IMG/VR virus record: IMGVR_UViG_2718217897_000003
DNA: 16,591 bases
Direction: 5' to 3' (one strand)
DNA from: a virus
Taxonomy: Duplodnaviria; Heunggongvirae; Uroviricota; Caudoviricetes
Positions within the stretch are counted from its first letter, which is position 1. Every line of letters starts with the position of its first letter. Of this stretch, positions 1 through 16,591 are shown piece after piece. The position numbers and the translations under genes were made by a program. Under the pieces are notes generated by a model. That model had not been told where the DNA came from. It made no database searches and saw only the letters and a program-made list of their open reading frames with translations.

Positions 1-900
1 TTAACGCAACAGTGGACAATCTGGTGGTAATCGACAACGCAACGCTGCCGGAAGTATTTCAATATGAAAATTTTGCCCACTCAACGGTTCGCCATCAAGA
101 TTAAAGGTGATGTCGTGTGGTGCCTGAATATCAAACCACGACGAAGCGCCTTCGATAATATTCGGGTTATCTTCGTCAGATTTTAAGGTTGATACGAGAG
201 CCGGAAGTATTTCATCGCCGGTAAAAATGCGCAGTTGCAGCAAGCCATCGTTAATTAACGCGTTCGGACACAATTGCTGACCGCCACCGGCCTGACGCCC
301 GTTACCAATACCAATGACCAGGGCGTCACCTTGCCAGTGAAAGTTTTCACCGCGGATTTCACAACGGTCCGGTTGCAGAGTATCCATGCGCATTAAGCCA
401 TGAATGATGTAAGAGACGCCACCCAGCGCGGCTTTTAATTTTTCCGGCGTTTCTGTGGTAATACGCGTCCCAAATCCGCCTGTCGCCATATTAATAAAAC
501 AGGTTTGTTTGTTGACCTGCGCCATATCTATCGCAATGGCGTTACCGGCAATTGCCAGTTTCAGCGCCTTATCCAGTGCCTCAGGAATCCCTACACTGGT
601 GGCAAAATCATTGGCGGTTCCTAATGGCAAAATTCCCAGCGCGGGTATGTCATCCCCCTCACACTGAATCAACGCCGTAGAAACTTCATTAATGGTGCCA
701 TCACCACCACCGGCAATCACCGTTGCGACGCCCAACTTCCGGGCCTCCTCTACATATCGTGCGGCATCGCCTTTCTCCCAGGTGACCCGCACATGGATCG
801 TCATTCCTTCCTCACGCAACAGCATAATTGCTTCGCGCAAGGGTAAATTGTCAGTACTTTTGCCATTAAGAATCAGTAAGCTGGCGGGAAATTCTGCCAT
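1..900 (-). CDS. yegS: Lipid kinase YegS (DAG-kinase-like catalytic domain family), host gene
   Basis: The minus ORF 1..1068 contains a 299-aa protein starting [14 protein letters not shown] at the ATG whose complement is at 898-900, with TAA stop at 1-3. It carries the GGGDGT motif ([13 protein letters not shown]) of this kinase family, and I recognise it as E. coli YegS. The 56 codons upstream in the ORF track are in-frame read-through, not protein. Confidence 0.92.
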
Positions 901-1304
901 GATCGTATGTGCCTTTATGATTGGTCTGTAGATAGTGTAGAGCAGAAAAGAAAAGGTGGAGTCAGAACAGGATGAAAGTCGGAGGATAAAAGTCAGTTCA
1001 AGTATGGAGGATTCAGTGGTTACCACCAGGAGCTTGCAATGGGGACAGCGAATACTAACGGCAGCCACCGATAAATTTCAAAAAAGAGAATATACCTAAT
1101 ATTCAACTAAACGGTGGCATCTTCAATATAATATATTAAAGCCCTCATGGAGTTACCCGGAAGGGCCTCCATGTCCGTAATTCCTACTTATGTAGGAAAT
1201 GTTGTACAGAACATTTATTATAATCCTATTCAATTATAATAATCATGCCATTATTATATTTAAACACTAGAGAGTGTCGTTGGTATTTAATGGGGGAAGG
1301 TGAG

Positions 1305-1622
1305 ATGAAAAAGATAGCTGCTATATCATTAATTAGTATTTTTATTATGTCTGGTTGTGCTGTGCATAATGATGAGACAAGTATCGGTAAATTTGGTCTT
1401 GCATATAAAAGTAATATTCAGCGTAAACTCGATAACCAATACTACACCGAAGCCGAAGCTTCTTTAGCCAGGGGTAGAATATCTGGTGCAGAAAATATAG
1501 TAAAAAATGATGCAACTCATTTCTGTGTTACTCAGGGCAAAAAAATGCAAATAGTTGAGCTGAAGACAGAAGGTGTAGGATTACATGGTGTCGCTCGTCT
1601 GACATTCAAATGTGGAGAGTGA
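1305..1622 (+). CDS. yegR: Small predicted lipoprotein YegR (105 aa), host gene divergent from yegS
   Basis: ATG at 1305 is preceded by GAAGGTGAG. The N-terminus MKKIAAISLISIFIMSGC looks like a signal peptide with a lipobox cysteine. I recall this as E. coli YegR. The ORF-track start at 1245 is an upstream in-frame extension. Confidence 0.8.
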   Translation: MKKIAAISLISIFIMSGCAVHNDETSIGKFGLAYKSNIQRKLDNQYYTEAEASLARGRISGAENIVKNDATHFCVTQGKKMQIVELKTEGVGLHGVARLTFKCGE

Positions 1623-1781
1623 GAATATTTTTTGGTAAGCGTCAAATATGCGCGTTCTGGCTGTGCGTAGCCGGAACCTGTGGGAGCACGATGCCGATAA
1701 GTGAAAGGCATCGTGCTATGAAGGAGGATTCTATCGATGTGGTCAATGGAAGACGGTTACCAGAGATAGGGCTTATGCATA

Positions 1782-1808
1782 AAAAAATAAGCCCGTGTAA
1801 GGGATATT
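1782..1808. other. Prophage attL core (P2-type att core; identical to the 3' terminator end of the cyaR sRNA gene)
   Basis: AAAAAATAAGCCCGTGTAAGGGA matches the P2 att core as I recall it and the reverse complement of the cyaR 3' end. Sequence to the right diverges from cyaR and leads into int, so this is the phage-derived duplicate, not a complete cyaR. Confidence 0.7.
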
Positions 1809-1887
1809 TAGGGTGTCACCAGTAGGGGCTTTCAACGGTACAATGCGGGTTTGAGCGGCATAAATTACCACTGAAAGCCCTTAAACG

Positions 1888-2901
1888 TTACTCTACTGTG
1901 GACACTGTGTGGACACTCTCGGCCTCAGTACCACCTCTTAGCGGATTAAGAGAAATGGCGTCCTGAAGGTACTCTGGCGCAAAATGAGCGTAAACCATAG
2001 TTTGCTCAATCCGCGTGTGACCTAGTATCCGTTGTAGCGTGATAATACTTCCTCCATTAATCATGAAATGAGTGGCAAAGCTGTGCCTTAGTGCATGTGT
2101 GGCTTGCCCCGTTGGCAAATCCGGTTTTATTGCTTTCATTGTTCGTCTGAAGCGAGGGTAATCAGCATCAGGGAATAAAAAACCTCGTTTGTTATCCGCG
2201 ATCATTTTGGCAACAGCCTCTGAGATCGGGACGGTGCGTGGTTTGTTTGTTTTCGTTTTAACAAACGTGACGCGGTTATGGATGATATTTTCTGCTTTCA
2301 AACGAGCTGCTTCTCCCCAACGTGCTCCTGTACTCAGGCAAAGAATCGCAATCTTTTTATTGTCGCCGTCAAGTGCTGCAAGCAGTAAGGCAATTTCTTC
2401 CTGTGTGAGATAGCCTGTTTCTGGTTTTTCCTCCTTAAGCCTCTTTGTCCCTCTGATAGGGTGCTCACCAAAGAATAACTCCGCTTCAATCAGGGCTGTA
2501 AACATGCCGCTAATACATGTTAAATCACGATTGATACTCGAAGGTTTAATACCCTGACTTCTTCGGGTGGCGCAGTACTGGCTGATAAGGGATTTCGTGA
2601 TTTGAAATGCGCATGGGTCATTCGTTATTTTTGTGAAGATTTCAATTTTTCCAAGATTAGATTTCCCATGCTCTTCGTGTTTACCCTTTAAATCCCACCA
2701 GATCTGTGTCAGTTCCGACAGACGTCGTTTGTCTGTTGGTTTTGATAGCCATTCTTTATTGTGGTGGTTGTACAACGTGTATTTTTCGAAAGCGACAGCT
2801 TCGCTTTTCTTATCAAACTTCCTACGGATGCGTTTTCCATTACGTCCAGTAGGGCGGATGTCCACTTCATATCGACCATCATCGAGTTTTTTGATTGCCA
2901 T
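1888..2901 (-). CDS. int: P2-type tyrosine integrase (337 aa)
   Basis: Protein MAIKKLDDGRYEVDIRPTGRNGKRIRRKF ... HALRHSFATHFMINGGSIITLQRILGHTRIEQTMVYAHF carries the R..H-x-x-R..Y tyrosine recombinase motifs. GGAGGG lies upstream of the ATG (complement at 2899-2901); stop complement at 1888-1890. It sits next to the att core. Confidence 0.95.
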   Translation of the reverse strand: MAIKKLDDGRYEVDIRPTGRNGKRIRRKFDKKSEAVAFEKYTLYNHHNKEWLSKPTDKRRLSELTQIWWDLKGKHEEHGKSNLGKIEIFTKITNDPCAFQITKSLISQYCATRRSQGIKPSSINRDLTCISGMFTALIEAELFFGEHPIRGTKRLKEEKPETGYLTQEEIALLLAALDGDNKKIAILCLSTGARWGEAARLKAENIIHNRVTFVKTKTNKPRTVPISEAVAKMIADNKRGFLFPDADYPRFRRTMKAIKPDLPTGQATHALRHSFATHFMINGGSIITLQRILGHTRIEQTMVYAHFAPEYLQDAISLNPLRGGTEAESVHTVSTVE

Positions 2902-3016
2902 CAGAAAACCCTCCGAGTGGTACTTTTTTTTGCTACTACTAATCGCTTTTTTCGTGGTGGCTGAAATTTAGCCACCAATAGTAGGCACTTGTGATGAATA
3001 TATTCACGATAAATTG

Positions 3017-3316
3017 TTAACCAGTCTTTTGACCGGAGTGGGGCGACGTTGTTTCGTTTTGCCCAAAGTGTGCGAGAGCGGGCGCAATTTGCCCGGCTTC
3101 TGGAGCTACCTGATCAGTCATGAACCACAAAGTATATTTAGTAAATCTAGGATGTTGTAAGACCTTCATTATGGCTTCAACTCCAGCGTTTTTTGACCGG
3201 CTCTCATAGCTCGAAAGTGAGCTGTAGGCTACACCAGTTAATTCACTGAATTCTTTACGGTTTAACCTTTCAGATTCACGGATTAGCTTCAACTTCTCCG
3301 AAACGTCTATTGACAT
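3017..3316 (-). CDS. C: Immunity repressor, P2 C-like (99 aa)
   Basis: Protein MSIDVSEKLKLIRESERLNRKEFSELTGVAYSSLSSYE ... FTKYTLWFMTDQVAPEAGQIAPALAHFGQNETTSPHSGQKTG. The C-terminal half resembles P2 repressor C as I recall it, and the N-terminal half is helix-turn-helix-like. It is divergent from cox, as in the P2 switch. The ORF-track start at 3388 is an upstream extension. Confidence 0.85.
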   Translation of the reverse strand: MSIDVSEKLKLIRESERLNRKEFSELTGVAYSSLSSYESRSKNAGVEAIMKVLQHPRFTKYTLWFMTDQVAPEAGQIAPALAHFGQNETTSPHSGQKTG

Positions 3317-3393
3317 AATTACTCCGATTGCGTAATTTCTTGCTGATAGTGTGAAATGTTGTGCTTCTGGAGTTATCCTTTTAGGCAATAATT

Positions 3394-3412
3394 AGCCATT
3401 AGGAGCCATTAG
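3394..3412. promoter_or_regulatory. Candidate repressor operator: tandem direct repeat AGCCATTAG x2 with 10-bp period in the C/cox divergent promoter region
   Basis: AGCCATTAG occurs at 3394-3402 and 3404-3412, between the divergent C and cox starts. P2-type repressors bind direct-repeat operators; the assignment is by position and repeat structure only. Confidence 0.4.
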
Positions 3413-3437
3413 AAGCACTAAGGGAGAATCGTAGCAG

Positions 3438-3713
3438 ATGAATAGACAGCTTGTAAGCGTGACTGATGCCGTGCCTTATCAGGAGTTTGCAAAACTCATT
3501 GGTAAAACTCCAAGAGCTGTAAGGGGCATGATTGAGAAAGGGAAATTACCAGTTATTGAGATTACTGACCCTCAGTCAGTATCGGGGCGTGCTGGTGAAT
3601 ATTGGGTATACCTTCCGGCATGGAATAACGGACTAAAACTGGCTTATGAAAGCCGTCCTAAAGAGATTCGTGACGGCTGGTTGATGTGGTTAGGTCTCGG
3701 TGAACCACGTTAA
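3438..3713 (+). CDS. cox: Cox (early-operon repressor/excisionase, 91 aa)
   Basis: Protein ... PYQEFAKLIGKTPRAVRGMIEKGKLPVIEITDPQSVSGRAGEYWVYLPAWNNGLKLAYESRPKEIRDGWLMWLGLGEPR closely matches P2 Cox as I recall it. First gene of the rightward early operon. Confidence 0.9.
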   Translation: MNRQLVSVTDAVPYQEFAKLIGKTPRAVRGMIEKGKLPVIEITDPQSVSGRAGEYWVYLPAWNNGLKLAYESRPKEIRDGWLMWLGLGEPR

Positions 3714-3723
3714 GGAGAACCGT

Positions 3724-3894
3724 ATGAATGAGCCTCGTTGTATTGCTCAGTTATTGCGTAACGAAAGCCCTAGGGCGATTGACTTCACCATCACCCACGG
3801 TAAGGGGCGTAAGGGAATCATTATCCGCACCAAAAAACAGAGTCCGTTAAAAAAGGCTCTGACCTTTCTGAAAAGCCGGAGGGTCTGGAAATGA
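3724..3894 (+). CDS. Small early protein, P2 orf78 position (56 aa)
   Basis: ATG at 3724 with GGAG 9 nt upstream; stop overlaps the B start (ATGA at 3891-3894). Called by position in the P2 early operon. Confidence 0.55.
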   Translation: MNEPRCIAQLLRNESPRAIDFTITHGKGRKGIIIRTKKQSPLKKALTFLKSRRVWK

Positions 3895-4391
3895 CAGTGA
3901 TGACGCTCAATCTCGTTGAAAAACAGCCAGCAGCTATGCGCCGGATAATTGGTAAGCATCTGGCCGTCCCTCGCTGGCAGGAGACATGCGATTATTATAA
4001 TCAGATGATGGAACGCGAACGGCTAACGGTTTGCTTCCATGCGCAGTTAAAACAGCGTCACGCAACGATGCGTTTTGAAGAAATGAACGACGTCGAACGT
4101 GAACGGCTGGTTTGTGCAATTGATGAATTGCGTGGGGCATTCTCAAAACGCCGTCAGGTTGGCGCAAGTGAGTATGCATATATTAGTTTTTTAACAGTCA
4201 GTCAGCGTCGTACTTTATTTATGCATGCCGGATTGACTGAAAAAGAATTCAACCAGCCATACTGGCGAATTAATGAAGAATCATGTTACTGGCGTGATGC
4301 TTTATTCCGTGCATTACGTGAATTATTCAGCCTGTTTGAGTATGCACCGACAATTCTGACGTCGGTAAAACCAGAGCAATATCTGCATTAA
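3891..4391 (+). CDS. B: Replication protein B (helicase-loader-like, 166 aa)
   Basis: 166-aa product MTVMTLNLVEKQPAAMRRIIGKHLAVPRWQETCDYYNQMMERERL..., matching P2 gpB in size, position and, as I recall it, sequence. Confidence 0.88.
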   Translation: MTVMTLNLVEKQPAAMRRIIGKHLAVPRWQETCDYYNQMMERERLTVCFHAQLKQRHATMRFEEMNDVERERLVCAIDELRGAFSKRRQVGASEYAYISFLTVSQRRTLFMHAGLTEKEFNQPYWRINEESCYWRDALFRALRELFSLFEYAPTILTSVKPEQYLH

Positions 4392-4454
4392 ATAATTAAC
4401 CAGAGTTTTTAATGCACTTAATCGTGCGGGGCTTCTTTTTGCCTGGAGAAAGTC

Positions 4455-4679
4455 ATGCATACAGTTTCTGAAAACAAGTGCGGTAAATACGCATTACTGC
4501 TGCAACAGGCCAGAGCCGAAGCACATGCCGACGCAGCGACACGCTTTTCTTCTCATCTTGACGCCATGATTCGCCATATCACAAAGGCGGAGTTATCCCG
4601 CGTGGAGATAGTCGAGCTGCTCAGTCAGGAGTCGGAAAAATTTCACAATATCGGATTGTCTCGCGGGGAGGTGCTTTGA
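4455..4679 (+). CDS. Hypothetical early protein, P2 orf80 position (74 aa)
   Basis: ATG at 4455; stop overlaps the next start (TGATG). Conserved position between B and A. Confidence 0.6.
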
Positions 4680-4978
4680 TGTCCTGTTCTCATTCAGTTG
4701 TATTACTGAATAACGCCTTAAAAATCGCCGTTATGAAAAATGGCGATTTGTCTCTTATTCAACTTTGCCTTGATAAAGAAAAACGCGACATAACTGAATC
4801 TGTTATCGCGATTTATCAGAATGAATTAAACCTCCTGTCTGATGTGGTCAATTTACTTGTTAAACGCGCTGTATTCCACAAGCAAATTTCCTCAGTGGAT
4901 GAACTGACAAAATTAACGACAGAACTTGCCAGTTATTGCGCTGATGTATCCAGGAAACTTAACGATAAAAGGAGCTGA
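4679..4978 (+). CDS. Hypothetical early protein, P2 orf81 position (99 aa)
   Basis: ATG at 4679 overlaps the upstream stop; the ORF-track start at 4676 is a TTG one codon earlier. AAAAGGAG near its 3' end serves the next gene. Confidence 0.6.
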   Translation: MSCSHSVVLLNNALKIAVMKNGDLSLIQLCLDKEKRDITESVIAIYQNELNLLSDVVNLLVKRAVFHKQISSVDELTKLTTELASYCADVSRKLNDKRS

Positions 4979-4980
4979 TA

Positions 4981-5205
4981 ATGCCGGACAACGTAGATTT
5001 TATTCAGGAACAACAGGCTGAATTACTGGAGCGCCAGATTAACGCGGCAAGGGTAAAACATTGCGGTGCTTCTGCGCTGGTTTGCGAAGAGTGTAACGCG
5101 CCAATACCTGCTGCCCGTCGTGCGGCTTACCCGTCAGCCACGCGTTGTGTTTCCTGTCAGTCAGTCTTTGAAGCAAAAAACAAACATTACCGGAGAACGG
5201 CATGA
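4981..5205 (+). CDS. DksA/TraR-type C4 zinc-finger protein, P2 orf82 position (74 aa)
   Basis: AAAGGAG precedes the ATG at 4981. Four cysteines in CxxC ... CxxC arrangement (HCGASALVCEECNAPIPAARRAAYPSATRCVSCQ). Confidence 0.75.
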   Translation: MPDNVDFIQEQQAELLERQINAARVKHCGASALVCEECNAPIPAARRAAYPSATRCVSCQSVFEAKNKHYRRTA

Positions 5206-5477
5206 GTATTCGTATTGAAATTGGCGAACGTTATGTCGTTACCAGTGACAGCTTTCAGTTTATTCTCCACGAGAAAAAGAGAGCGGAAAGCGGTAAAAAC
5301 GCCGGTCAGGAATGGCTGGCGGTGGTTGGTTATTACCCGAAATTAAGCCAGCTCGTTTCCGGCCTGATGCATCACGATATTCTTACCGGAAGCGCAAAGT
5401 CTTTTGCTGATTTAAACGCGCAGGTTGAGCAACTCAGCAAGCGTTGTTCAGAGGCTTTTGGCTCATATGGCCGTTAA
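5202..5477 (+). CDS. Hypothetical early protein, P2 orf83 position (91 aa)
   Basis: ATGA overlap with the orf82 stop; its 3' end overlaps the A start by 11 nt. Confidence 0.7.
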   Translation: MSIRIEIGERYVVTSDSFQFILHEKKRAESGKNAGQEWLAVVGYYPKLSQLVSGLMHHDILTGSAKSFADLNAQVEQLSKRCSEAFGSYGR

Positions 5478-7749
5478 AGCCTCCGGGCGTTTTGTCCCTC
5501 CGTCAGCATTTGCCGCAGGCACCGGTAAGACGTTTACCGGTGCTTATGCATGGAACGCGCCACGCGAGGCCGTCGGGCGCGAAAGACCCCTTACACGTGA
5601 CGAGATGCGTCAGGTGCAAGGTGTTTTATCCACGATTAACCGCCTGCCTTACTTTTTGCGCTCGCTGTTTACTTCACACTATGACTACATCCGGCGCAAT
5701 AAAAGCCCGGTGCACGGGTTTTATTTCCTCACATCCACTTTTCAGCGTCGTTTATGGCCGCGCATTGAGCGTGTGAATCAGCGCCATGAAATGAACACCG
5801 ACGCGTCGTTGCTGTTTCTGGCAGAGCGTGACCACTATGCGCGCCTGCCGGGAATGAATGACAAGGAGCTGAAAAAGTTTGCCGCCCGTATCTCATCGCA
5901 GCTTTTCATGATGTATGAGGAACTCAGCGATGCCTGGGTGGATGCACATGGCGAAAAAGAATCGCTGTTTACGGATGAGGCGCAGGCTCACCTCTATGGT
6001 CATGTTGCTGGCGCTGCACGTGCTTTCAATATTTCCCCGCTTTACTGGAAAAAATACCGTAAAGGACAGATGACCACGAGGCAGGCATATTCTGCCATTG
6101 CCCGTCTGTTTAACGATGAGTGGTGGACTCATCAGCTCAAAGGCCAGCGTATGCGCTGGCATGAGGCGTTACTGATTGCTGTCGGGGAGGTCAATAAAGA
6201 CCGTTCTCCTTATGCCAGTAAACATGCCATTCGTGATGTGCGTGCACGCCGCCAGGCAAATCTGGAATTTCTTAAATCGTGTGATCTCGAAAACAGGGAA
6301 ACCGGCGAGCGCATCGACCTTATCAGTAAGGTGATGGGCAGTATTTCTAATCCTGAAATTCGCCGGATGGAGCTGATGAACACCATTGCCGGTATTGAGC
6401 GTTACGCCGCAGCAGAGGGTGATGTGGGGATGTTTATCACGCTGACCGCGCCGTCAAAGTATCACCCGACACGTCAGGTTGGAAAAGGCGAAAGTAAAAC
6501 CGTCCAGCTAAATCACGGCTGGAACGATGAGGCATTTAATCCAAAGGATGCGCAGCGTTATCTCTGCCGTATCTGGAGCCTGATGCGCACGGCATTCAAG
6601 GATAATGATTTACAGGTCTACGGTTTGCGTGTCGTCGAGCCACATCACGACGGAACGCCGCACTGGCATATGATGCTTTTTTGTAATCCGCGCCAGCGTA
6701 ACCAGATTATCGAAATCATGCGTCGCTATGCGCTCAAAGAGGATGGCGACGAAAGAGGAGCCGCGCGAAACCGTTTTCAGGCAAAACACCTTAATCGGGG
6801 CGGTGCTGCGGGGTATATCGCGAAATACATCTCAAAAAACATCGACGGCTATGCACTGGATGGTCAGCTCGATAACGATACCGGCAGACCTCTGAAAGAT
6901 ACTGCCGCGGCTGTTACTGCATGGGCGTCAACGTGGCGCATCCCGCAATTTAAAACGGTTGGTCTGCCGACAATGGGGGCTTACCGTGAACTACGCAAAT
7001 TGCCTCGCGGCGTCAGCATTGCTGATGAGTTTGACGAACGCGTCGAGGCTGCACGCGCTGCCGCAGACAGTGGCGATTTTGCGTTGTATATCAGTGCGCA
7101 GGGTGGGGCAAATGTTCCGCGCGATTGCCAGACTGTCAGAGTCGCCCGTAGCCCGTCGGATGAAGTTAACGAGTACGAGGAAGAAGTCGAGAGAGTGGTC
7201 GGCATTTACGCGCCGCATCTCGGCGCGCGTCATATTCATATCACCAGAACGACGGACTGGCGCATTGTGCCGAAAGTTCCGGTCGTGGAGCCTTTGACTT
7301 TAAAAAGCGGCATCGCCGCGCCTCGGAGTCCTGTCAATAACTGTGGAAAGCTCACCGGTGGTGATACTTCGTTATCGGCTCCCACACCGACTGAGCATGC
7401 TGCAGCGGTGTTAAATTTTATAGATGAAGGGATTCTAAGTTGGACCGAGCCAGGCATTATGAAGGTACTTAGAGACTTATTGAGTAATGAACTGAAATGC
7501 AGTAATCGTTCACAGCAGAGCTTTACTCCTTTCAATGGTCGAAGCTACTTTCCTGCCCCATCCGCCCGGTTGACAAGGCAGGAGAGAAAGACTATCCCGA
7601 AAATTAAGGTTCTTCTTGCACAAAGTGACATTCAGGCTAGTTATTGGGAGCTTGAAGCTCTCGCTCGCGGAGCTGTTTTGGATTTTGGGCATAAGCGTTT
7701 TAAATTTGATACCGATATCGACTTTTTTGACAGACAGCGTGAGTGGTAG
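5467..7749 (+). CDS. A: Replication initiation protein A (rolling-circle initiator, 760 aa)
   Basis: Protein starts MAVKASGRFVPPSAFAAGTGKTFTGAYAWNAPREAVGRERPLTRDEMRQ at the ATG at 5467 and carries an HxH-like motif (TPHWHMMLF) and a tyrosine-rich GYIAKYISKN region typical of gpA-family initiators. The ORF-track start at 5425 is an extension. The last 110 codons or so are AT-richer than the rest. Confidence 0.92.
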   Translation: MAVKASGRFVPPSAFAAGTGKTFTGAYAWNAPREAVGRERPLTRDEMRQVQGVLSTINRLPYFLRSLFTSHYDYIRRNKSPVHGFYFLTSTFQRRLWPRIERVNQRHEMNTDASLLFLAERDHYARLPGMNDKELKKFAARISSQLFMMYEELSDAWVDAHGEKESLFTDEAQAHLYGHVAGAARAFNISPLYWKKYRKGQMTTRQAYSAIARLFNDEWWTHQLKGQRMRWHEALLIAVGEVNKDRSPYASKHAIRDVRARRQANLEFLKSCDLENRETGERIDLISKVMGSISNPEIRRMELMNTIAGIERYAAAEGDVGMFITLTAPSKYHPTRQVGKGESKTVQLNHGWNDEAFNPKDAQRYLCRIWSLMRTAFKDNDLQVYGLRVVEPHHDGTPHWHMMLFCNPRQRNQIIEIMRRYALKEDGDERGAARNRFQAKHLNRGGAAGYIAKYISKNIDGYALDGQLDNDTGRPLKDTAAAVTAWASTWRIPQFKTVGLPTMGAYRELRKLPRGVSIADEFDERVEAARAAADSGDFALYISAQGGANVPRDCQTVRVARSPSDEVNEYEEEVERVVGIYAPHLGARHIHITRTTDWRIVPKVPVVEPLTLKSGIAAPRSPVNNCGKLTGGDTSLSAPTPTEHAAAVLNFIDEGILSWTEPGIMKVLRDLLSNELKCSNRSQQSFTPFNGRSYFPAPSARLTRQERKTIPKIKVLLAQSDIQASYWELEALARGAVLDFGHKRFKFDTDIDFFDRQREW

Positions 7750-7784
7750 TTGAAAAAACGGTTGAACGGGGTAACAATATGTTA

Positions 7785-7814
7785 TTGTTGAGGAATTGTT
7801 TGTTATGGTTTAAT
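7785..7814 (+). promoter_or_regulatory. Candidate sigma70-like promoter for the cargo operon (-35 TTGTTG 7785-7790, -10 TTTAAT 7809-7814), overlapping a palindrome
   Basis: Hexamers with 18-bp spacing about 25 bp upstream of the 7838 ATG; palindrome AACAATA-tgt-TATTGTT at 7773-7789. Pattern match only. Confidence 0.3.
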
Positions 7815-7837
7815 TTTTATACACGGCAGAAAAGCAT

Positions 7838-9061
7838 ATGAGCATGGTTGAATGGATAAGCCACGAGAAAAAAGATAGCCTGATACTATTTGTACATGGA
7901 TTAAATGGTGGTTTGGAAACATGGAACTTTAATAAAGAAATTTCATTTCCAAAACTATTAGCAGAAGATGAAGATATTAGCAACGTATTTGATATTGCAT
8001 GTTTCAATTATTTTACTAAATTCACACAAACGTATGCTAAAACGTCAGGATTCTTGGCTCGTATTTTCTTTAAGAAAAATAAGTTAGAGAGAAATTTACC
8101 AACTGATGAAATAGCTGAGTTATTGTATACTGAGATTAGAGTAACACTAAGTGATTACTCTCGAATTATAATAATCGCCCATAGTATGGGGGGGTTAATA
8201 TCAAAAAATCTAATTCTAAAAAAAGTTGAGCATGAGGAACAATCTAATATAATTGGATTCATTTCGTTAGCAGTCCCTCACTTTGGTGCTAAATTAGCGA
8301 ATATAACTTCAATGGTATCTTCAAATGCTCAGTTAGTAGATCTTGGATTGTTAAGTGAAGCGACTGATACATTGAATAGGCGCTGGATAAATTGTAGCAA
8401 AAAACTTCCTATCACTAGATATGTTTATGGATCTCATGACACTATAGTCGATAAAAAAAGCGCATTACCGATGGATAGTGAACGACATAACTCAATTGCA
8501 GTTAATGAAGGGCATAGCTCAATTTGCAAGCCCGAAAATAGCTCGTCTACAGTGTTTGTTGCGGTAAAGCAATTTATTCAGCAGATAAATTTAGAAGCAC
8601 CCAAGAAGATTTGCGTTGAGCGTTTTTCTGATGATAAACAATATGATAATGAGTATTTCGTCTTAAAAATGATTGTCGCAGATATACATCAGGATATCGC
8701 TCTGCATGCAAAGGAATATTATTATAATGCTGAGCTTGCGAGAAATATTTTTACGAGTGATTACGATAGAAAACAACTTGGTCATTTGTATTCTAAAATA
8801 AGGGAGATTTACCAGGAAGAGTATGAGCAATACATTGCAAATTCAATTTCCCCAGATAAATTTATTGCTGCTGTTCATAGACGAATAACCCAGGAGGATA
8901 AGTCGTCGTTAGATTCTCTTATAAAAAGTTTGGAAACGATACATAAGAAAGGAATGTTGCATCAACTGGCTAACAAAAATGACAGGGATATTGTCTGGTC
9001 ATCTGAAACCAGCGTAGAAACTTTGGAGCAATTACGGCGAGGTAATCATGAAGAAAAATAA
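7838..9061 (+). CDS. Cargo protein 1: lipase-like alpha/beta serine hydrolase with C-terminal helical domain (407 aa), candidate defense effector
   Basis: AT-rich ORF. Oxyanion-hole-like HGLNGG (res 20-25), nucleophile elbow AHSMGG (Ser116, the pentapeptide of Bacillus lipase A), candidate acid Asp201 (YGSHDTIVD) and His226 (NEGHSSI), in the canonical order. The C-terminal 150 residues or so are helical and K/E-rich. The stop overlaps the next gene by 14 nt. Confidence 0.75.
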   Translation: MSMVEWISHEKKDSLILFVHGLNGGLETWNFNKEISFPKLLAEDEDISNVFDIACFNYFTKFTQTYAKTSGFLARIFFKKNKLERNLPTDEIAELLYTEIRVTLSDYSRIIIIAHSMGGLISKNLILKKVEHEEQSNIIGFISLAVPHFGAKLANITSMVSSNAQLVDLGLLSEATDTLNRRWINCSKKLPITRYVYGSHDTIVDKKSALPMDSERHNSIAVNEGHSSICKPENSSSTVFVAVKQFIQQINLEAPKKICVERFSDDKQYDNEYFVLKMIVADIHQDIALHAKEYYYNAELARNIFTSDYDRKQLGHLYSKIREIYQEEYEQYIANSISPDKFIAAVHRRITQEDKSSLDSLIKSLETIHKKGMLHQLANKNDRDIVWSSETSVETLEQLRRGNHEEK

Positions 9062-9560
9062 CTTGCCGTATATACCTCTTGATGAAGAGTATAGTTTGAA
9101 TTTTGCTATGCTTGCCATTGCTATATCTATATTATCTCATAGCAAAAAAGGAGTGTTGTCATTAGATATTAATAAAATACAAATTTTTATGTATCTGATA
9201 AAAAATCCATCAAAAATTGATTGTGCTCTTACAGTTTCGGGGAAAAAGCCTGCTTGTGTCGAGTCCCAGTTAACTTATACAATAAAGAGTTTTTCATCAA
9301 ATGTAGATATCTTATTCGACAATTCCAAAGTGAAATATCTTATAAAAATTATGTCATTGCGGGGATTGCTCTCAGCTGAGAAAAAAAATAATGAGAGTGT
9401 TAAATTATTTTTATCTGAAAAAGGTAAGGAATTTGCTAGCTCATTGACTGATGGATATTTTAAAGAAATAAAACGACTAGCCGAAGCATTGTTACCGCTA
9501 CAAGCATTGCCTACCTCTAAGTTAAACTCTGTTATAAACAAAGTCTTCAAGGAGAAATGA
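9048..9560 (+). CDS. Cargo protein 2: small 170-aa protein of unknown function, possible adaptor or kleisin-like middle component
   Basis: ATG at 9048 lies inside the 3' end of gene 1, and ATGA overlaps gene 3 at 9557-9560, indicating translational coupling in one operon. AT-rich; no motif recognised by eye. Confidence 0.7.
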   Translation: MKKNNLPYIPLDEEYSLNFAMLAIAISILSHSKKGVLSLDINKIQIFMYLIKNPSKIDCALTVSGKKPACVESQLTYTIKSFSSNVDILFDNSKVKYLIKIMSLRGLLSAEKKNNESVKLFLSEKGKEFASSLTDGYFKEIKRLAEALLPLQALPTSKLNSVINKVFKEK

Positions 9561-11527
9561 TGAAATCATATCTCAATATCAATAGTTTGATTCTTGTTGG
9601 CGTTCGTAAAAACTACGTCACTACTTTTTATAAAGGTCTCAATGTTATCTACGGAGACTCTGACACAGGTAAGTCAAGTATTCTGGAGTTTATTAATTAT
9701 CTTTTAGGTGCTAGTTCTATAGATTTAGCAGATGAAATAAAAACATCAGTAAACTATGCTGCTCTTGAAGTAGTGATCAATGATACTGTATTCACAATCG
9801 TAAGAGATATCTATGATCATAAAAAATCAATAGAAGTTTATCGTTGTAAGTTTGATGATTTACATAAACACTTTCCGAAAAAATACGCCCCTAATTATAG
9901 CCCCTTATCAAATGTTGATGGCGTTTTTTCGGAGTTTTTACTTGATAGTCTTAATTTTCCAAAAATTGAAATTAAGGTGTCTCCTTCTAAAGCACATTCA
10001 CAGATGCGCAGGTTAAGCTTTAGAAATATATATAAATTTGTTTATGTAAGTCAGGATGATATTGGTAGTAAATCATTCTTACGATTGGAGGATTGGTCCC
10101 GTTACGCATTTACGAAAGAAGTTTTTAAATACATGTTCAATGTGTTGGATGAAAGCATCGCCAGACTCCAAGGTGAAATATCTGCAAAAAGTAGTTTAGT
10201 AACGGAACTAAATAAGAAGTATCAGATAATATCTGAATTTCTTCGCGATACAGACTATGAAACAATTGAATCAATTGATGATGAGATTAATAGGATAGAT
10301 CTTATTTTAGAAGAACTTGTTGCAGGTTTGTCTGCTCTCGATAAAAATATGAAAGCGGATTCCATGCAGTATACAGAATTGAAAGATGCCCACAATTTTA
10401 TTTCGCTTAAATACAAGGAGTGCATATTAAATATTAGCACGCTTGAGGATAAGATTGATAAATATTCGCGGTTAAAAAATGACTATGATAATGATATTGA
10501 AAAACTCAAAGCGATTAAAACAGCAAATTCTCGCATTGGTGTATTGGATAAGGAAGTATTTTCCTGTCCGATCTGTGATAGCCACATTAAAATAGATGAT
10601 TCCGATTTTCCATTTGAAATTTCATCAGAAAAAGATCTTAATGAAGAGTTGAATTCACTTAGTCGACGTAGACGAAATATTAATGACATGATCTCAGAAA
10701 TGTCATTTAAATTAAAAAAAGAATCTGGTTATAAAAAAGAATTAGATGAACAACTTGACGAGTTGAGAGAGTTAATTGACGAAGAAAGCCAGTCAATGAT
10801 TACACCATTCTTGACTCAGAGAGATTTTTATATTAAAGAGATATCAAAAAACGAGAAGGTTAGGGAGCAGTTAGTAAAAGATTTGAAGGTTAGAAACCAG
10901 CAAGAGGAACTGCTTGAAAAGCATCAGGTACTGATAAAAGATATTGAAACATTAACTGAACGCTTGGATGCGTTAAAGAAAAACGCACCTAGTATGGAAG
11001 GCATTTTACAAGGTTTAGGTGATAGATTTAGTCAGTATTTGAAGGGTATTAATATCAAAAACAGAACGGGGATAAAAATCTCTGAAAGATATTACACCCC
11101 TGTTATAAGAGGAAAGGAATATTTTAAAATAACGTCCGGAGGTTTGAGAACTATTTCTTCTATTGGGTATCTTTTGTCTATTCTTGATTATGCAATAGAC
11201 CATAATGTTAACCATCCTTTACTTTTGATATTTGATACGGTTGGTAAATATTTAGGGAAACAGACCAAGGAAAAATACTCAAAAGAAACTCTTGCAGTCG
11301 AGGATGACCTTGAGGGGATGTCAGACCCGATGAAGTATCAAAATATTTATGAGCAACTATTGAATACAGTTCAAAAAGCAGAAAGAAAAAATGTTCCGTG
11401 CCAGATTATATTAGTTGATAATGATTTGCCTAATTCGTTTTCTACTGGTGAACTTTCGAATATTATCGCTCATTATAGCTCGGTTGGTGAGGATGGTTTG
11501 CCTTTAGGTTTAATTGATGACCTTTAA
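9557..11527 (+). CDS. Cargo protein 3: SMC/Rad50/SbcC-like ABC ATPase with coiled coil and CxxC hook (656 aa)
   Basis: N-terminal Walker A GDSDTGKSS (K39), Q-loop-like VSQDD (Q166), a charged heptad-rich segment of about 350 residues with a single CPIC (C337/C340) near its middle, signature-like TSGG (526-529) and Walker B-like LLLIFD (555-560). Confidence 0.8.
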   Translation: MMKSYLNINSLILVGVRKNYVTTFYKGLNVIYGDSDTGKSSILEFINYLLGASSIDLADEIKTSVNYAALEVVINDTVFTIVRDIYDHKKSIEVYRCKFDDLHKHFPKKYAPNYSPLSNVDGVFSEFLLDSLNFPKIEIKVSPSKAHSQMRRLSFRNIYKFVYVSQDDIGSKSFLRLEDWSRYAFTKEVFKYMFNVLDESIARLQGEISAKSSLVTELNKKYQIISEFLRDTDYETIESIDDEINRIDLILEELVAGLSALDKNMKADSMQYTELKDAHNFISLKYKECILNISTLEDKIDKYSRLKNDYDNDIEKLKAIKTANSRIGVLDKEVFSCPICDSHIKIDDSDFPFEISSEKDLNEELNSLSRRRRNINDMISEMSFKLKKESGYKKELDEQLDELRELIDEESQSMITPFLTQRDFYIKEISKNEKVREQLVKDLKVRNQQEELLEKHQVLIKDIETLTERLDALKKNAPSMEGILQGLGDRFSQYLKGINIKNRTGIKISERYYTPVIRGKEYFKITSGGLRTISSIGYLLSILDYAIDHNVNHPLLLIFDTVGKYLGKQTKEKYSKETLAVEDDLEGMSDPMKYQNIYEQLLNTVQKAERKNVPCQIILVDNDLPNSFSTGELSNIIAHYSSVGEDGLPLGLIDDL

Positions 11528-11655
11528 TACTATACATGCATTTTTTTGAATTAGATTGCATGTGGATAATGAGTCTATTTAGTGAAGGGAAGGTTTTGTG
11601 TGACGTGACTTTCGATAAAATTCAACCGCATTAAAACCGCCCCATGAAGCGGGCG

Positions 11656-11674
11656 GGCGAGGCGGGGAAAGCAC
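11656..11674. other. cos site (19-nt cohesive-end sequence GGCGAGGCGGGGAAAGCAC) with flanking G/T-rich repeats
   Basis: The 19-mer matches the P2 cohesive end as I recall it, lying between the end of the rightward operon and the 3' end of Q, where cos sits in a P2 prophage. G/T-rich reiterated motifs follow at about 11700-11815. Confidence 0.65.
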
Positions 11675-11815
11675 TGCGCGCTGGCGGTGGTGCTGATTTT
11701 ATTTTTTAGCGTCTCAGCGCGTCGTGATGGCGTTTAGATTGTGCGCCGGGGCGTTGGTGTGTCTGCGGGGTGTTTTGTGCGGTGGTGAGCGTGTGAGGGC
11801 GTGATGACGGGGTGT

Positions 11816-11837
11816 AAAAAAGCCGCCCGCAGGCGGC
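11816..11837 (-). terminator. Rho-independent terminator downstream of Q (minus strand)
   Basis: GCCGCC-cgca-GGCGGC hairpin at 11822-11837, preceded on the plus strand by AAAAAA (a U-run on the minus strand after the stem), immediately 3' of the Q stop at 11843-11845. Confidence 0.55.
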
Positions 11838-11842
11838 GATGT

Positions 11843-12814
11843 TCAGCCGTTGTCAGTGTCCAGTGAGTAGTTTTTAAAGCGGATGACCTCCTGACCGAGC
11901 CAGCCGTTTATCTCACGGATCCTGTCCTGTAACGGGATAAGCTCATTGCGGACAAAGACCTTTGCCACTTTCTCAATATCACCCAGCGACCCGACGTTCT
12001 CCGGCTTGCCGCCCATCAACTGAAAGGGGATGCGGTGCGCGTCCAGCAGGTCTGCGGCACTGGCTTTTTTGATATTAAAAAAATCGTCCTTCGTCGCCAC
12101 TTCACTGAGCGGGATAATTTTAATGCCGTCGGCTTTTCCCTGTGGGGCATAGAGAAACAGGTTTTTAAAGTTGTTGCGGCCTTTCGACTTCACCATGTTT
12201 TCGCGAAGCATTTCGATATCGTTGCGATCCTGCACGGCATCAGTGACGTACATGATGTATCCGGCATGTGCGCCGTTTTCGTAATACTTGCGGCGGAACA
12301 GCGTGGCCGACTCATTCAGCCAGGCAGAGTTAAGGGCGCTGAGATATTCCGGCAGGCCGTACAGCTCCTGATTAATATCGGGCTCCAGCAGGTGAAACAC
12401 GGAACCGGGCGCGAAGGCTGTCGGTTCGTTGAAGGACGGCACCCACCAGTAAACATCCTCCTCCACGCCACGGCGGGTATATTTTGCCGGTGAGGTTTCC
12501 AGTCTGATGACCTTACCGGTGGTGCTGTAACGCTTTTCCAGAAACGCATTACCGAACACCAGAAAATCCAGCACAAAGCGGCTGAAATCCTGCTGGGAAA
12601 GCCACGGGTGCGGGATAAACGTTGAAGCCAGAATATTACGTTTGACGTAAATCGGTGAGCTGTGATGCACGGCAGCACGCAGACTTTTTGCCAGACCGGT
12701 AAAGCTGACCGGTGGCTCATACCATCTGCCGTTACTGATGCATTCGACGTAATCCAGAATGTCACGGCGGTCGAGTACCGGCACTGGCTCACCATGCTGA
12801 AAAATCAGCTTCAT
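11843..12814 (-). CDS. Q: Portal protein Q (323 aa as encoded here; 5' end abuts a deletion junction, possibly N-terminally truncated)
   Basis: Minus-strand ORF with host-like GC content in the expected place and orientation next to cos. From memory P2 Q is about 344 aa, so about 20 codons may be missing. Sequence directly upstream of its ATG is lysB-derived rather than gene P. Confidence 0.8.
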   Translation of the reverse strand: MKLIFQHGEPVPVLDRRDILDYVECISNGRWYEPPVSFTGLAKSLRAAVHHSSPIYVKRNILASTFIPHPWLSQQDFSRFVLDFLVFGNAFLEKRYSTTGKVIRLETSPAKYTRRGVEEDVYWWVPSFNEPTAFAPGSVFHLLEPDINQELYGLPEYLSALNSAWLNESATLFRRKYYENGAHAGYIMYVTDAVQDRNDIEMLRENMVKSKGRNNFKNLFLYAPQGKADGIKIIPLSEVATKDDFFNIKKASAADLLDAHRIPFQLMGGKPENVGSLGDIEKVAKVFVRNELIPLQDRIREINGWLGQEVIRFKNYSLDTDNG

Positions 12815-13075
12815 GTTGCGCTCACCAGGGCAGACAAAAACGAGCTGGCGCAGGTGGCACTGCGTCAGGAACTGGAAAACGCCGCGAAGCGTGAAGCTCA
12901 GCGCGAGAAAACCATCACGAGATTACTCAATGAAAACGAAGATTTCCGCCGCTGGTATGGCGCTGACCTGCCTGATGCTGTGCGCCGGTTGCACCAGCGC
13001 CCCGCCTGCACCGACGCCAGTGATTGTCCACAACGCCTGCCCGAAAGTGAGTCTTTGCCCGATGCCGGGCAGTGA
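12815..13075 (+). pseudogene. lysB: lysB remnant (Rz-like spanin, 3' portion only)
   Basis: The frame ending at 13075 encodes ...ALTRADKNELAQVALRQELENAAKREAQREKTITRLLNENEDFRRWYGADLPDAVRRLHQRPACTDASDCPQRLPESESLPDAGQ, but upstream of about 12815 the same frame is antisense to Q. There is no lysB start or N-terminal transmembrane region. The 5' boundary is approximate (plus or minus 30 nt). Confidence 0.6.
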
Positions 13076-13220
13076 CCCGCAGACGAACGGCGATTTAAGT
13101 GCCGATATCCGGCAGCTTGAGAACGCGCTGGCACGCTGTGCCAGCCAGGTAAAAATGATTAAACACTGTCAGGACGAAAACGATGCTCAAACCCGACAGC
13201 CTGCGCAGGGCGCTGACTGA
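12930..13220 (+). CDS. lysC: LysC (Rz1-like outer-membrane lipoprotein spanin, 96 aa), embedded in the lysB frame region
   Basis: MKTKISAAGMALTCLMLCAGCTS has a signal peptide and lipobox Cys; the rest is proline-rich. Embedded out of frame in lysB as in P2. Likely non-functional without full LysB. Confidence 0.7.
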   Translation: MKTKISAAGMALTCLMLCAGCTSAPPAPTPVIVHNACPKVSLCPMPGSDPQTNGDLSADIRQLENALARCASQVKMIKHCQDENDAQTRQPAQGAD

Positions 13221-13650
13221 TGCCGTCACGGTGCTGAAAACTAACCCCGATATGCTTCGGATATTCGTGGATAACGGGAGTATTGCCTCCACACTGGCGA
13301 CGTCGCTGTCATTCGAAAAGCGTTACACGCTCAATGTCATTGTGACCGATTTTACCGGTGATTTTGACCTGCTCATCGTGCCGGTGCTGGCGTGGCTGCG
13401 GGAAAATCAGCCCGACATCATGACCACCGACGAAGGCCAGAAAAAAGGCTTCACGTTTTATGCAGACATCAACAATGACAGCAGCTTTGATATCAGTATC
13501 AGCCTGATGCTGACCGAACGCACGCTGGTCAGTGAGGTGGGCGGCGCGCTGCATGTGAAGAATATCCCGGAACCCCCGCCGCCGGAGCCGGTCACCCGCC
13601 CGATGGAGCTTTATATCAATGGCGAACTGGTGAGTAAGTGGGATGAATGA
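13183..13650 (+). CDS. R: Tail completion protein R (155 aa)
   Basis: MLKPDSLRRALTDAVTVLKTNPDMLRIFVDNGS... matches P2 gpR in sequence as I recall it, and in size and position. Confidence 0.9.
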   Translation: MLKPDSLRRALTDAVTVLKTNPDMLRIFVDNGSIASTLATSLSFEKRYTLNVIVTDFTGDFDLLIVPVLAWLRENQPDIMTTDEGQKKGFTFYADINNDSSFDISISLMLTERTLVSEVGGALHVKNIPEPPPPEPVTRPMELYINGELVSKWDE

Positions 13651-14095
13651 GTTTAAGCGTTTTGAAGACCGGCTGACCGGGCTGATTGAATCGCTGTCAC
13701 CGTCAGGGCGTCGGCGACTGAGCGCCGAACTGGCGAAACGTCTGCGTCAGAGTCAGCAGCGTCGGGTGATGGCACAGAAAGCCCCGGACGGCACCCCCTA
13801 CGCGCCACGTCAGCAGCAGAGCGCCAGAAAAAAGACCGGTCGCGTTAAGCGAAAAATGTTTGCGAAACTTATTACCAGTCGTTTTTTGCATATCCGCGCC
13901 AGCCCGGAACAGGCATCAATGGAATTTTACGGCGGGAAGTCGCCGAAAATCGCCAGTGTGCATCAGTTCGGTCTGTCGGAAGAAACCCGGAAAGACGGTA
14001 AGAAAATTGATTATCCGGCGCGTCCTCTGCTCGGCTTTACCGGTGAGGATGTGCAGATGATTGAAGAGATTATCCTGGCTCACCTTGAGCGTTAG
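13643..14095 (+). CDS. S: Tail completion protein S (150 aa)
   Basis: MNEFKRFEDRLTGLIESLSPSGRRRLSAELAKRLRQSQQRRV... matches P2 gpS as I recall it; start overlaps the R stop. Confidence 0.9.
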   Translation: MNEFKRFEDRLTGLIESLSPSGRRRLSAELAKRLRQSQQRRVMAQKAPDGTPYAPRQQQSARKKTGRVKRKMFAKLITSRFLHIRASPEQASMEFYGGKSPKIASVHQFGLSEETRKDGKKIDYPARPLLGFTGEDVQMIEEIILAHLER

Positions 14096-14125
14096 TTTTA
14101 TCCAGGCAGAGGCTGATGCGCAATT

Positions 14126-14160
14126 AAACATTGAGCGGCCATGCTGGTCGCTCAATGTTT
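14126..14160. terminator. Perfect 12-bp-stem hairpin between convergent S and the membrane-protein gene; candidate bidirectional terminator
   Basis: AAACATTGAGCG-(11 nt loop)-CGCTCAATGTTT, 30 nt after the S stop and just before the minus-strand gene's stop. Only a short U-run (the stem's own TTT). Confidence 0.45.
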
Positions 14161-14166
14161 AGAGGC

Positions 14167-14952
14167 TTATGAGTGATTTTTATTTGATGCTTTGTATTCT
14201 ACAACCTTCTTATTGGCGTAAAGGAATTTTGTATATGACAGGAATATAACCAGACCTGAAATGAAATAGATGAGGGATATTATTAATAATGCTTTTTTTT
14301 GGCTGTTATTATCTTTAATTTCCTGACTTAACCATTCCGAGTCCTCCTCGTTTAGCTGTAAGAGCTTATTGCAGGCGATCTCAGGAAGTGTGTCTTTTAT
14401 AAATATGTTTCGTAGCCTCTTGCAATCGGCAAGGCTATAAGTTTTATTGAATTCAACTGTTTTATTGTTGAAGGATAAAAGAACTTTGTCACTATAAACA
14501 TAGTACATCATATTTTTATATGGTATGCCTATGGCATCTCTTACTATAGCGGATTGTTTGTTGTGTATATAACATGCGAAGAGAATATAAATAATGCTGG
14601 ACAGAATTACAATTATTGTTTTAATTATGTGTGGTGGTTTTGTTATGTCACCCCAGAAGCGAGTAAGAAAAAAATACGATGTTTTTAGTTTTCCATCAAT
14701 CAGCCCCTGCTGTATCATTCTCACATCTTCGATGCCTGATACATTGATTCCGTTAATTATTTTAAATAGTTGAATGTCGCGCCATTTTTTGTCGAGCATT
14801 TTTAACTTTCTGTCTGAATACTCAAAATTGAAATGATGTGCAATAAACCTCATAAGATTACTTTTACCAAAGGTAATAAATGTTAATGCTATTAATAAAA
14901 ATAGATACAAAGAGATAAACCACCACGCATTAGTCACATTATCACTGAACAT
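14167..14952 (-). CDS. AT-rich cargo gene: 261-aa integral membrane protein (about 3 predicted TM helices), unknown function, in the S-V slot (P2 orf30 position)
   Basis: ATG complement at 14950-14952 with GAGGAG 8 nt upstream on the minus strand. Hydrophobic segments WWFISLYLFLLIALTFITF, IIVILSSIIYILFACYI and ALLIISLIYFISGLVIFLSY. Opposite strand to the flanking tail genes. Confidence 0.8.
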   Translation of the reverse strand: MFSDNVTNAWWFISLYLFLLIALTFITFGKSNLMRFIAHHFNFEYSDRKLKMLDKKWRDIQLFKIINGINVSGIEDVRMIQQGLIDGKLKTSYFFLTRFWGDITKPPHIIKTIIVILSSIIYILFACYIHNKQSAIVRDAIGIPYKNMMYYVYSDKVLLSFNNKTVEFNKTYSLADCKRLRNIFIKDTLPEIACNKLLQLNEEDSEWLSQEIKDNNSQKKALLIISLIYFISGLVIFLSYTKFLYANKKVVEYKASNKNHS

Positions 14953-15035
14953 TACGCTCTCCTCGAATGTTGTATGGTCGTTCTACAAATGAATCCAGAT
15001 AGCATAACTTTTATATATTGTGCAATCTCACACGC

Positions 15036-15671: not shown

Positions 15672-16015
15672 CAGCGCGTTATCTCGGAATGAATTGCAGT
15701 GATGGCCTGACTGTCACTGACCTTGAGCATATCAGCCAGAGTATCGGCGATATCCTGCGCACACCGGTCGGCTCGCGGGTGATGCGTCGTGATTACGGCT
15801 CGTTGCTGGCGTCAATGATTGACCAGCCGCAGACCCCGGCGCTTGAGTTGCAGATTAAGGTCGCCTGTTACATGGCGGTGCTGAAATGGGAACCCCGCGT
15901 CACCCTGTCATCCGTCACCACTGAGCGCAGTTTTGACGGGCGAATGACGGTCACCTTAACCGGCCAGCACAACGACACCGGCCAGCCACTTTCGTTAACC
16001 ATCCCTGTGAGTTGA
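15668..16015 (+). CDS. W: Baseplate wedge protein W (gp25-like, 115 aa)
   Basis: MTARYLGMNCSDGLTVTDLEHISQSIGDILRTPVGSRVMRRDYGS... matches P2 gpW as I recall it; ATGA overlap with the V stop. Confidence 0.92.
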   Translation: MTARYLGMNCSDGLTVTDLEHISQSIGDILRTPVGSRVMRRDYGSLLASMIDQPQTPALELQIKVACYMAVLKWEPRVTLSSVTTERSFDGRMTVTLTGQHNDTGQPLSLTIPVS

Positions 16016-16019
16016 AACC

Positions 16020-16124: not shown

Positions 16125-16591
16125 ACACCAAAGACCCGAAACCGCAAAAGCAGAAGGTAAAACTGAAACGCAAAAAGAAAGAGAAACACCTGCGCGCACT
16201 GGAGCACCCGAACGCGAAACCGGTCAGGCAGAAGAAAGCGCCTAAAGTACCGGAAGCGCGTGAAGGTGAATACATGGCCGGTGAGGCTGACAACGTTTTT
16301 GCCCTGACCACGGTATATGCCACGAAAGCGCAGGCCATGCGCGCCGCTCAGGCGAAGTGGGATAAGCTGCAACGGGGCGTTGCGGAGTTCTCCATCAGTC
16401 TGGCTACCGGTCGTGCTGATATTTACACGGAAACACCGGTTAAAGTGTCAGGCTTTAAGCGCGTCATAGACGAGCAGGACTGGACAATCACTAAGGTGAC
16501 ACATTTTCTGAATAATAGCGGCTTCACGACGTCCCTGGAGCTTGAGGTCAGGCTTTCTGATGTGGAGTACGAAACAGAAGATGATGAGTGA
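16125..16591 (+). pseudogene. D: Tail protein D, 3' fragment (about 155 codons, no start), analogous to the K-12 yegZ remnant
   Basis: An open frame from 16082 to the TGA at 16589-16591 encodes ...KAQAMRAAQAKWDKLQRGVAEFSISLATGRADIYTETPVKVSGFKRVIDEQDWTITKVTHFLNNSGFTTSLELEVRLSDVEYETEDDE with no plausible start or RBS. It is the last gene before where ogr and attR would lie. Assignment to D rests on position and partial recollection. Confidence 0.6.

Follow-up and report, generated by a model that had tools for sequence, protein, structure and literature searches.

Positions 1782 to 1808 as the attL of a defective P2-type prophage at the 3' end of the small RNA gene cyaR

The bacterial gene cyaR (ryeE) encodes a CRP-dependent sRNA. 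Barreiro & Haggard-Ljungquist are said to have described in 1992 a P2 site called "locI", and we take the site at cyaR to be this one. Phage P2 Hy dis arose when P2 recombined with a defective prophage in E. coli B, presumably the P2 relative that this strain carries. In E. coli, ryeE was [quoted passage not shown] (Bobay et al., PMC3603311). Like ryeE, other genes for stable or small RNAs carry prophages at their 3' ends, such as tRNA-Ile with phage 186, the tmRNA gene ssrA with Fels-2 and SopE-phi, and the sRNA gene ryeB/sdsR in Salmonella (PMC3448106, PMC3603311, PMC3333887). The attP core of P2, AAAAAATAAGCCCGTGTAAGGGAGATT, is annotated at NC_001895 24356-24382, where it is also given as an Int-binding site (GenBank). 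In E. coli K-12 the locus reads cyaR, cryptic prophage PR-X, ogrK, yegZ, yegR and yegS, and PR-X is annotated as starting inside cyaR.

We analysed a stretch of viral DNA of 16,591 nucleotides (the window), the left 1.8 kb of which is 100% identical to chromosomes of the E. coli B lineage. We conclude with high confidence that positions 1782-1808 are the attL of a defective P2-type prophage, of which about 15 kb is left of roughly 33 kb, in the classical P2 site overlapping the 3' end of cyaR. An earlier note on this DNA had placed the site at the same locus as the cryptic P2 remnant of K-12, and PR-X (ogrK, yegZ) indeed lies between cyaR and yegR in that strain. The features of the locus are shown in Table 1.

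Table 1. Features at and around the attachment site. Locations are window positions unless a contig or locus (L number) is named; L005 is GCA_029516775.1.
Feature	Location	Strand	Remarks
yegS	1..900	-	lipid kinase, conserved host gene, attL side
Putative fossil attL	987..1063	+	degenerate core, 17/27 (987-1013), and P'-arm-like stretch
yegR	1305..1622	+	Escherichia-restricted orphan (PF27694), inside E. coli-specific segment
Relic of P2-type P arm	1734..1781	+	starts TCGATGTGGTCAATG, 15/15 against P2; 16-nt deletion relative to P2
attL core, 27 nt, P2-type	1782..1808	+	AAAAAATAAGCCCGTGTAAGGGATATT; reverse complement of cyaR 3' end
Cox-binding region, P' side, predicted	1825..1898	.	position transferred from P2 annotation (P2 24399-24472)
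int	1888..2901	-	P2-type tyrosine integrase, 337 aa, intact; Pfam Int_N, Phage_integrase; 98.9% nucleotide identity to P2
P' arm Int-binding site, predicted	1896..1922	+	P2 annotation "Int, P' arm" 24470-24496
C-type immunity repressor gene	3017..3316	-	99 aa, intact; beside attL
cox	3438..3713	+	excision directionality factor and Pc repressor, 91 aa, intact; PF10743 Phage_Cox
D' fragment	16274..16591	+	105 aa; last prophage gene in window
yegQ	L005 4290-5651		
cyaR, intact	L005 5734-5819		RF00112, 100.7 bits against a gathering cut-off of 47
Second core copy (attR)	L005 5796-5822		G at position 24
ogr	L005 5924-6142		beyond right end of window
P-arm loci in other species	L017, L049, L062, L075, L076, L084, L091, each about 5533-5640		after cyaR

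The core is single-copy in the window, even when up to three mismatches are allowed. The P2 attP core is identical, as reverse complement, to the final 27 nt of cyaR in K-12 MG1655 (L002 2175-2201; ncRNA cyaR at 2115-2201). The earlier note had reported a 23-nt copy of the sRNA terminator at attL and had proposed aligning the core to P2 attP and to K-12 cyaR; both alignments gave 26/27, 23 nt of which match without interruption, and the core is thus common to the window and an annotated phage attP. The sole mismatch is at core position 24 (window 1805), where the window has T for G. In an alignment of nine attL, attR and attP sequences this position is G in cyaR/attR, in the attP of P2 and of two other phages and in the attL of one other prophage; the T is therefore most likely a later point mutation in an old remnant, and it is uninformative on the crossover point. 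When window 1765-1850 was used as an attL query, only 14 of the 758 matching records (757 genomes) had 100% identity, and the ones listed belong to the B lineage. Another 674 records fell at 95-99%, these bands being identities over the whole query and not readings of position 24.

The two sides of the core differ in origin, as the earlier note had described: yegR and yegS lie to the left and P2 attP-int DNA to the right. From 1782 rightward the window shows 98.9% nucleotide identity to the P2 attP-int region, and the predicted Cox-binding region is identical to that of P2 (alignment A1). The predicted P' arm site overlaps the 3' end of int and contains two direct repeats of TGTGGACA (1897-1904 and 1908-1915); the consensus of arm-type Int repeats is tgTGGaCa (PMC3448106). 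At attR, the P arm reads GATGTGGTCAATGTGTGGAC. Thus int adjoins attL, and arm-type Int sites can be recognized in the sequence of both arms.

Missing from the prophage are the genes for the large and small terminase, scaffold, capsid, head completion and lysis, and the version in the window also lacks the tail fibre, sheath and tube genes. Because the terminase, capsid, head and lysis genes are deleted, it is unable to make phage particles, and the site is a relic and not an active junction. A truncated portal gene (323 aa, window 11843-12814, minus strand) abuts a LysC fragment, and a deletion between the two has removed the genes for terminase, scaffold, capsid, head completion, holin and endolysin. 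After replication gene A there is a three-gene cassette (window 7838-11527, plus strand; ORFs 7838-9061, 9048-9560 and 9557-11527), presumably in the position where the P2 map has tin/old. According to RefSeq, its products are an ABC-three component system protein (407 aa; DUF676/CTD8), a middle component 4 (170 aa) and an AAA ATPase (656 aa). The cassette is likely to be cargo directed against other phages, at a hotspot for P2 accessory genes.

When the truncated portal protein was used for an exact-protein look-up, contigs sharing the architecture of the window were retrieved. One of them, L005, aligns to window 1843-16591 at 100.000% identity, free of mismatches and gaps, and extends past the right end of the window. 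On this contig a second core starts 402 bp past the window end, and ogr, the P arm, the attR core and cyaR all lie within about 430 bp after D'. The earlier note had predicted an intact cyaR at attR beyond the window, to be sought with the second core by extending the contig past ogr; it had named the lack of a second core, or a cyaR located elsewhere, as the observations that would speak against it, and neither was seen on L005. Since the second core lies inside an intact cyaR on an identical contig, the predicted attR has been found. E. coli REL606 also has two cores; they are separated by 22 kb, and cyaR is again found on the side of ogr (second core at L001 20282-20308). In both L005 and REL606 the attR core has the same orientation as attL, so that the two copies form a direct repeat, and in the nine-sequence alignment the flanks switch exactly at the core edges.

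These data bear on the trivial explanation that an A-rich, GC-hairpin-like sequence happens to look like the end of cyaR. Terminator sequences are generally alike, but this is the only point we found in favour of chance. Against it stand the 26/27 match, when 200 dinucleotide-preserving shuffles gave 0 matches at three or fewer mismatches, the position of the core exactly at the boundary of host and phage DNA, and the second copy at the other end of the prophage. The shuffles and the second copy refute it; we regard a chance resemblance as practically out of the question.

Neither REL606 nor any complete B genome is colinear with the window. REL606 was considered as a colinear match and was ruled out by 1332 bp that are extra in the window and 8.3 kb that are missing from it. 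The extra segment (window 12602-13933; LysC', R and S) is absent from the complete B genomes, and a 7-bp repeat is found at the deletion junction of REL606. The 8.3 kb present in REL606 carries tail fibre, glycosyltransferase, sheath and tube genes; in the window, J' is joined to D' at about 16121-16124. The arrangement of the window occurs in no complete RefSeq E. coli genome and in several draft assemblies.

To represent the unoccupied site, the yegR-side flank, the core and the cyaR body were joined in silico into a hypothetical attB. E. coli genomes, among them CT29 and 2017.17.01CC, matched this construct in one piece at 100% identity, so that unoccupied attB sites are present in related genomes. 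It was covered in one place in 4572 of 5426 complete genomes, a count that takes in K-12-type remnants, which match in two pieces. The attL junction (window 1765-1850) was present in 757 of 5426 complete genomes (about 14%, ~1 in 7).

Nothing contradicts the explanation of 1782-1808 as an attL made by integration, yet homologous recombination with a resident remnant would leave identical junctions. An incoming P2 relative could have recombined with a K-12-type remnant (ogr-D') or with the older fossil described below, and the att sites would then have been inherited. Remnants are common at this locus, as seen from PR-X of K-12 and from the two-piece attB matches, the flank carries relics of a P arm and a P' arm, and the literature counts P2 Hy dis among the relatives of P2. 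We nevertheless consider this route unlikely: the junctions are exactly those predicted by a core-by-core exchange, this attL recurs across many lineages, in 757 genomes, and nothing calls for an extra step, although both routes give the same sequence, so that sequence alone cannot separate them.

The two junctions, an unoccupied site, an undamaged cyaR at attR and the identity to P2 attP and its arm sites were all observed. From these, site-specific integration may be pictured as follows, the parts assigned to Int, IHF and Cox being taken from P2 biology and the GenBank annotation of P2 (PMC3448106; PMC3936717). The 27-nt core of attP is identical to the last 27 nt of cyaR. P2 Int, a tyrosine recombinase, would bind the arm sites and the core and exchange strands between the attP core and the cyaR core with the assistance of IHF, and the circular phage would end up inserted between two core copies. 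At attR, the order of ogr side, P arm, core and cyaR body would regenerate a complete cyaR with its terminator hairpin, while attL, with the yegR side, core, P' arm and int, would be left with a non-functional half terminator only. Cox would direct excision. In this way the phage could land on a conserved, hairpin-bearing RNA gene without inactivating cyaR, as other phages do with tRNA genes.

The core spans the loop, the 3' arm and the T-tract of the cyaR terminator, and the 5' arm, GCCTGTGTA, is not part of it but belongs to the bacterial body of cyaR. When folded, the CyaR of attR forms the terminator stem AGCCUGUGUAA / UUACACGGGCU (in RNA letters), followed by a U6 tail. The attL copy folds only into the hairpin GGGCUUAU(N10)AUAAGCCC, which has the U-run inside its loop, and a consensus scan of 1760-1830 found no terminator-like site on either strand; the G+C-rich stem-loop followed by a T/U run that defines an intrinsic terminator is not present. 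An Rfam scan of the whole window at the gathering threshold found no cyaR gene, and a search around 1782-1808 at E<=10 gave no cyaR match either; the scans yielded only three chance matches. No match is expected there because the site holds just a 27-nt fragment; the attL copy stays below the 47 bits of RF00112, which the attR gene far exceeds.

It might be asked whether the 27-mer is itself a functional element, for instance one that terminates int or yegR, or another, partial sRNA gene. In favour of this, the 27-mer corresponds to the 3' half of a genuine intrinsic terminator, int on the minus strand is followed by it, and the hairpin given above can form across the junction. But it lacks the 5' arm of the cyaR stem, the consensus scan found no terminator at it on either strand, it matches no Rfam family even at E<=10, and the U-run of the alternative hairpin is in the loop and not after the stem. 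A functional role of this kind is very improbable. As only the loop, 3' arm and T-tract are present, the attL copy is no terminator; it is a passive, non-functional half.

At attR, according to the earlier note, the terminator of cyaR is supplied by phage DNA. This may hold for the part in the core (loop, 3' arm and T-tract) and does not hold for the 5' arm, which is bacterial. Because the flanking P arm is phage DNA, the part of the attR core distal to the cyaR body can be taken as phage-derived: the T-tract should be, and the 3' arm probably is, the sequence being the same either way. How far the phage-derived part extends depends on the crossover point.

The tract after the CyaR stem differs in length between sites. 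It is T7 in the reconstructed empty site and T6 at attR, including that of K-12 (window 1781-1789 compared with L005 5796-5802), and the host lineage of prophage 720R8 has six T on the attL side. CyaR was characterised in K-12, i.e. in a T6 strain. A change from T7 to T6 upon integration could slightly alter termination or Hfq binding.

The host flank left of the core was found to have a structure of its own. Segment 987-1781 (790 bp) has 39% G+C compared with 50% for yegS. In Escherichia sp. E1V33 and Citrobacter amalonaticus, the upstream region of yegS directly abuts the core and cyaR, without yegR; relative to these outgroups, segment 987-1781 is therefore an insertion located exactly at the att core. 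At its right end is the relic of a P2-type P arm, which has a local alignment score of 38, when shuffles gave 14.8 +/- 2.2 with a maximum of 26 and 0 of 2000 scored as high. The P-arm homology runs on to the core (alignment A1), and the relic is also present in the unoccupied sites and in K-12. At the left end, no other ungapped stretch of the interval matches the core as well as 987-1013, which is located at the homology breakpoint with the yegS-cyaR spacer of E1V33 and Citrobacter. The probability of a match of at least 16/27 within 11 offsets of the breakpoint is about 0.005, and that for the region-wide maximum is about 0.10. A 77-nt colinear alignment to core plus P' arm scored 18 (shuffles 10.96 +/- 1.69; 9 of 2000 as high). 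Both arm relics are thus found in the right order and orientation, the evidence being strong for the P-arm relic and moderate for the core and P'-arm relic.

Phage genes could not be recognized in this segment: tblastn found no coding relics of Int or Ogr in 987-1781, and neither phage-gene remnants nor a phage origin of yegR could be established. Homologues of YegR were found only in E. coli/Shigella or, for the few distant ones, in IS-rich, ordinary chromosomal and other non-P2 contexts. The possibility that yegR is a P2 moron is not supported, as no phage record carries it apart from one prophage-derived record that includes host flank and a 2.4-kb fragment labelled "Phage TP".

We lean, by a narrow margin of confidence, towards the view that the "empty" P2 site of E. 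coli is itself the attR of a fossil P2-type prophage of ~0.8 kb inserted between yegS and cyaR. By the same slight preference, this insertion would have taken place before E. coli diversified, would have left a degenerate attL, yegR and the P-arm relic, and may have delivered yegR. If so, the loop-distal half of the cyaR terminator in yegR-carrying E. coli would trace to phage DNA, and later P2 phages, including the prophage in the window, would have been stacked onto the fossil. The "yegR flank" of the earlier note stands as far as yegR and yegS adjoin the core, and with its P-arm and P'-arm relics it is probably not pristine host DNA. The literature searched contained no mention of such a fossil, which is weak evidence of novelty.

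The end of cyaR was also compared in other Enterobacteriaceae. Among species representatives of the family, cyaR directly follows yegQ in 79 of 80 yegQ loci, and a P2-type P arm (containing GTCCACACATTGACCACATCGA) is found right after the species' own cyaR in at least 7 of 78 scorable representatives. These are Trabulsiella guamensis, Citrobacter youngae, another Citrobacter, an Enterobacter sp., a Scandinavium MAG and two further Enterobacteriaceae. The cyaR terminators of the hosts with a P arm vary, for example TTACGCAGGC in place of TTACACGGGC; since they differ, the phage cores must track the host sequence. The cyaR end is a family-wide P2 target, with cores that follow the sequence of the host.

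A conserved sequence after cyaR in Enterobacter was considered as a mobile element and was rejected, being an ordinary 2-thiouracil desulfurase gene followed by yegS. One record labelled Enterobacter hormaechei B17-3 (CP169086.1, L013) has yegQ and cyaR 100% identical to those of E. coli, and its DNA after cyaR is Enterobacter-like, with the 2-thiouracil desulfurase gene and then yegS at about 70% identity. This mosaic could be a recombinant segment or an oddity of labelling or assembly.

The attL at cyaR is real and far beyond chance, it was correctly interpreted, and its arrangement is already known. GenBank annotations and published work already cover the site, its core and the remnant in K-12, and the biology of P2 and CyaR gains nothing new from it. 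For annotation, attL can be set at 1782-1808, the prophage runs to about 430 bp beyond the window, and cyaR is undisrupted. Three points are mildly new: the flank is apparently what is left of a still older P2-type insertion, which may have brought in yegR, the cyaR end is used by P2-type phages in several other enterobacterial genera, and the CyaR T-tract is one base shorter at occupied sites than in the reconstructed empty-site type.

Like P2 attP and the preferred P2 site of E. coli at cyaR, the locus in the window has a core matching at 26/27, a P' arm with TGTGGACA repeats, a Cox-box region and an int gene of 98.9% nucleotide identity, together with a P arm and an IHF region at the ogr end and the host neighbours yegQ-cyaR and yegR-yegS. 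It differs from P2 in the T at position 24 of the attL core, and exact matches to the attL query occur only in the B lineage among the records listed. It differs also in being a ~15-kb remnant without P, O, N, M, L, X, Y, K and most tail genes, and in carrying the ABC-three-component cassette at the place of tin/old on the P2 map.

Compared with PR-X of K-12, the prophage in the window has the same attR, in which the core closes cyaR and the P arm, ogr and a D fragment come next. PR-X keeps only 629 bp, whereas in the window attL is complete, and int, C, cox, the replication genes and some of the tail module are retained. At the K-12 attL, the first 18-19 nt of the core (AAAAAAATAAGCCCGTGTA; L002 2813-2831, corresponding to about window 1781-1799) are fused directly to D' (yegZ); the deletion in PR-X therefore ended inside the core. 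In a check for microhomology, the exact string on the D-gene side of this junction was absent from the window and from REL606.

Another remnant at this site is found in the type strain of E. albertii, NBRC 107761 (L015 5533-9000), where ~3.3 kb of P2-type sequence carries cdtA, cdtB and cdtC as cargo. Like the prophage in the window, it has an attR core at the 3' end of cyaR followed by P-arm-like sequence, and an attL made of core and P' arm. Unlike that prophage, it is reduced to ~3.3 kb with the cytolethal distending toxin genes, and its attL adjoins the yegS upstream region, with no yegR segment.

Like prophages at the ends of tRNA, tmRNA and other sRNA genes, P2 at cyaR carries a phage copy of the 3' end of an RNA gene, and integration regenerates the gene. 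The cyaR site differs from tRNA sites in that the target is the terminator of an Hfq-dependent sRNA and not a tRNA T-arm, and from other RNA-gene sites in that the duplicated core comprises only the loop, the 3' arm and the T-tract.
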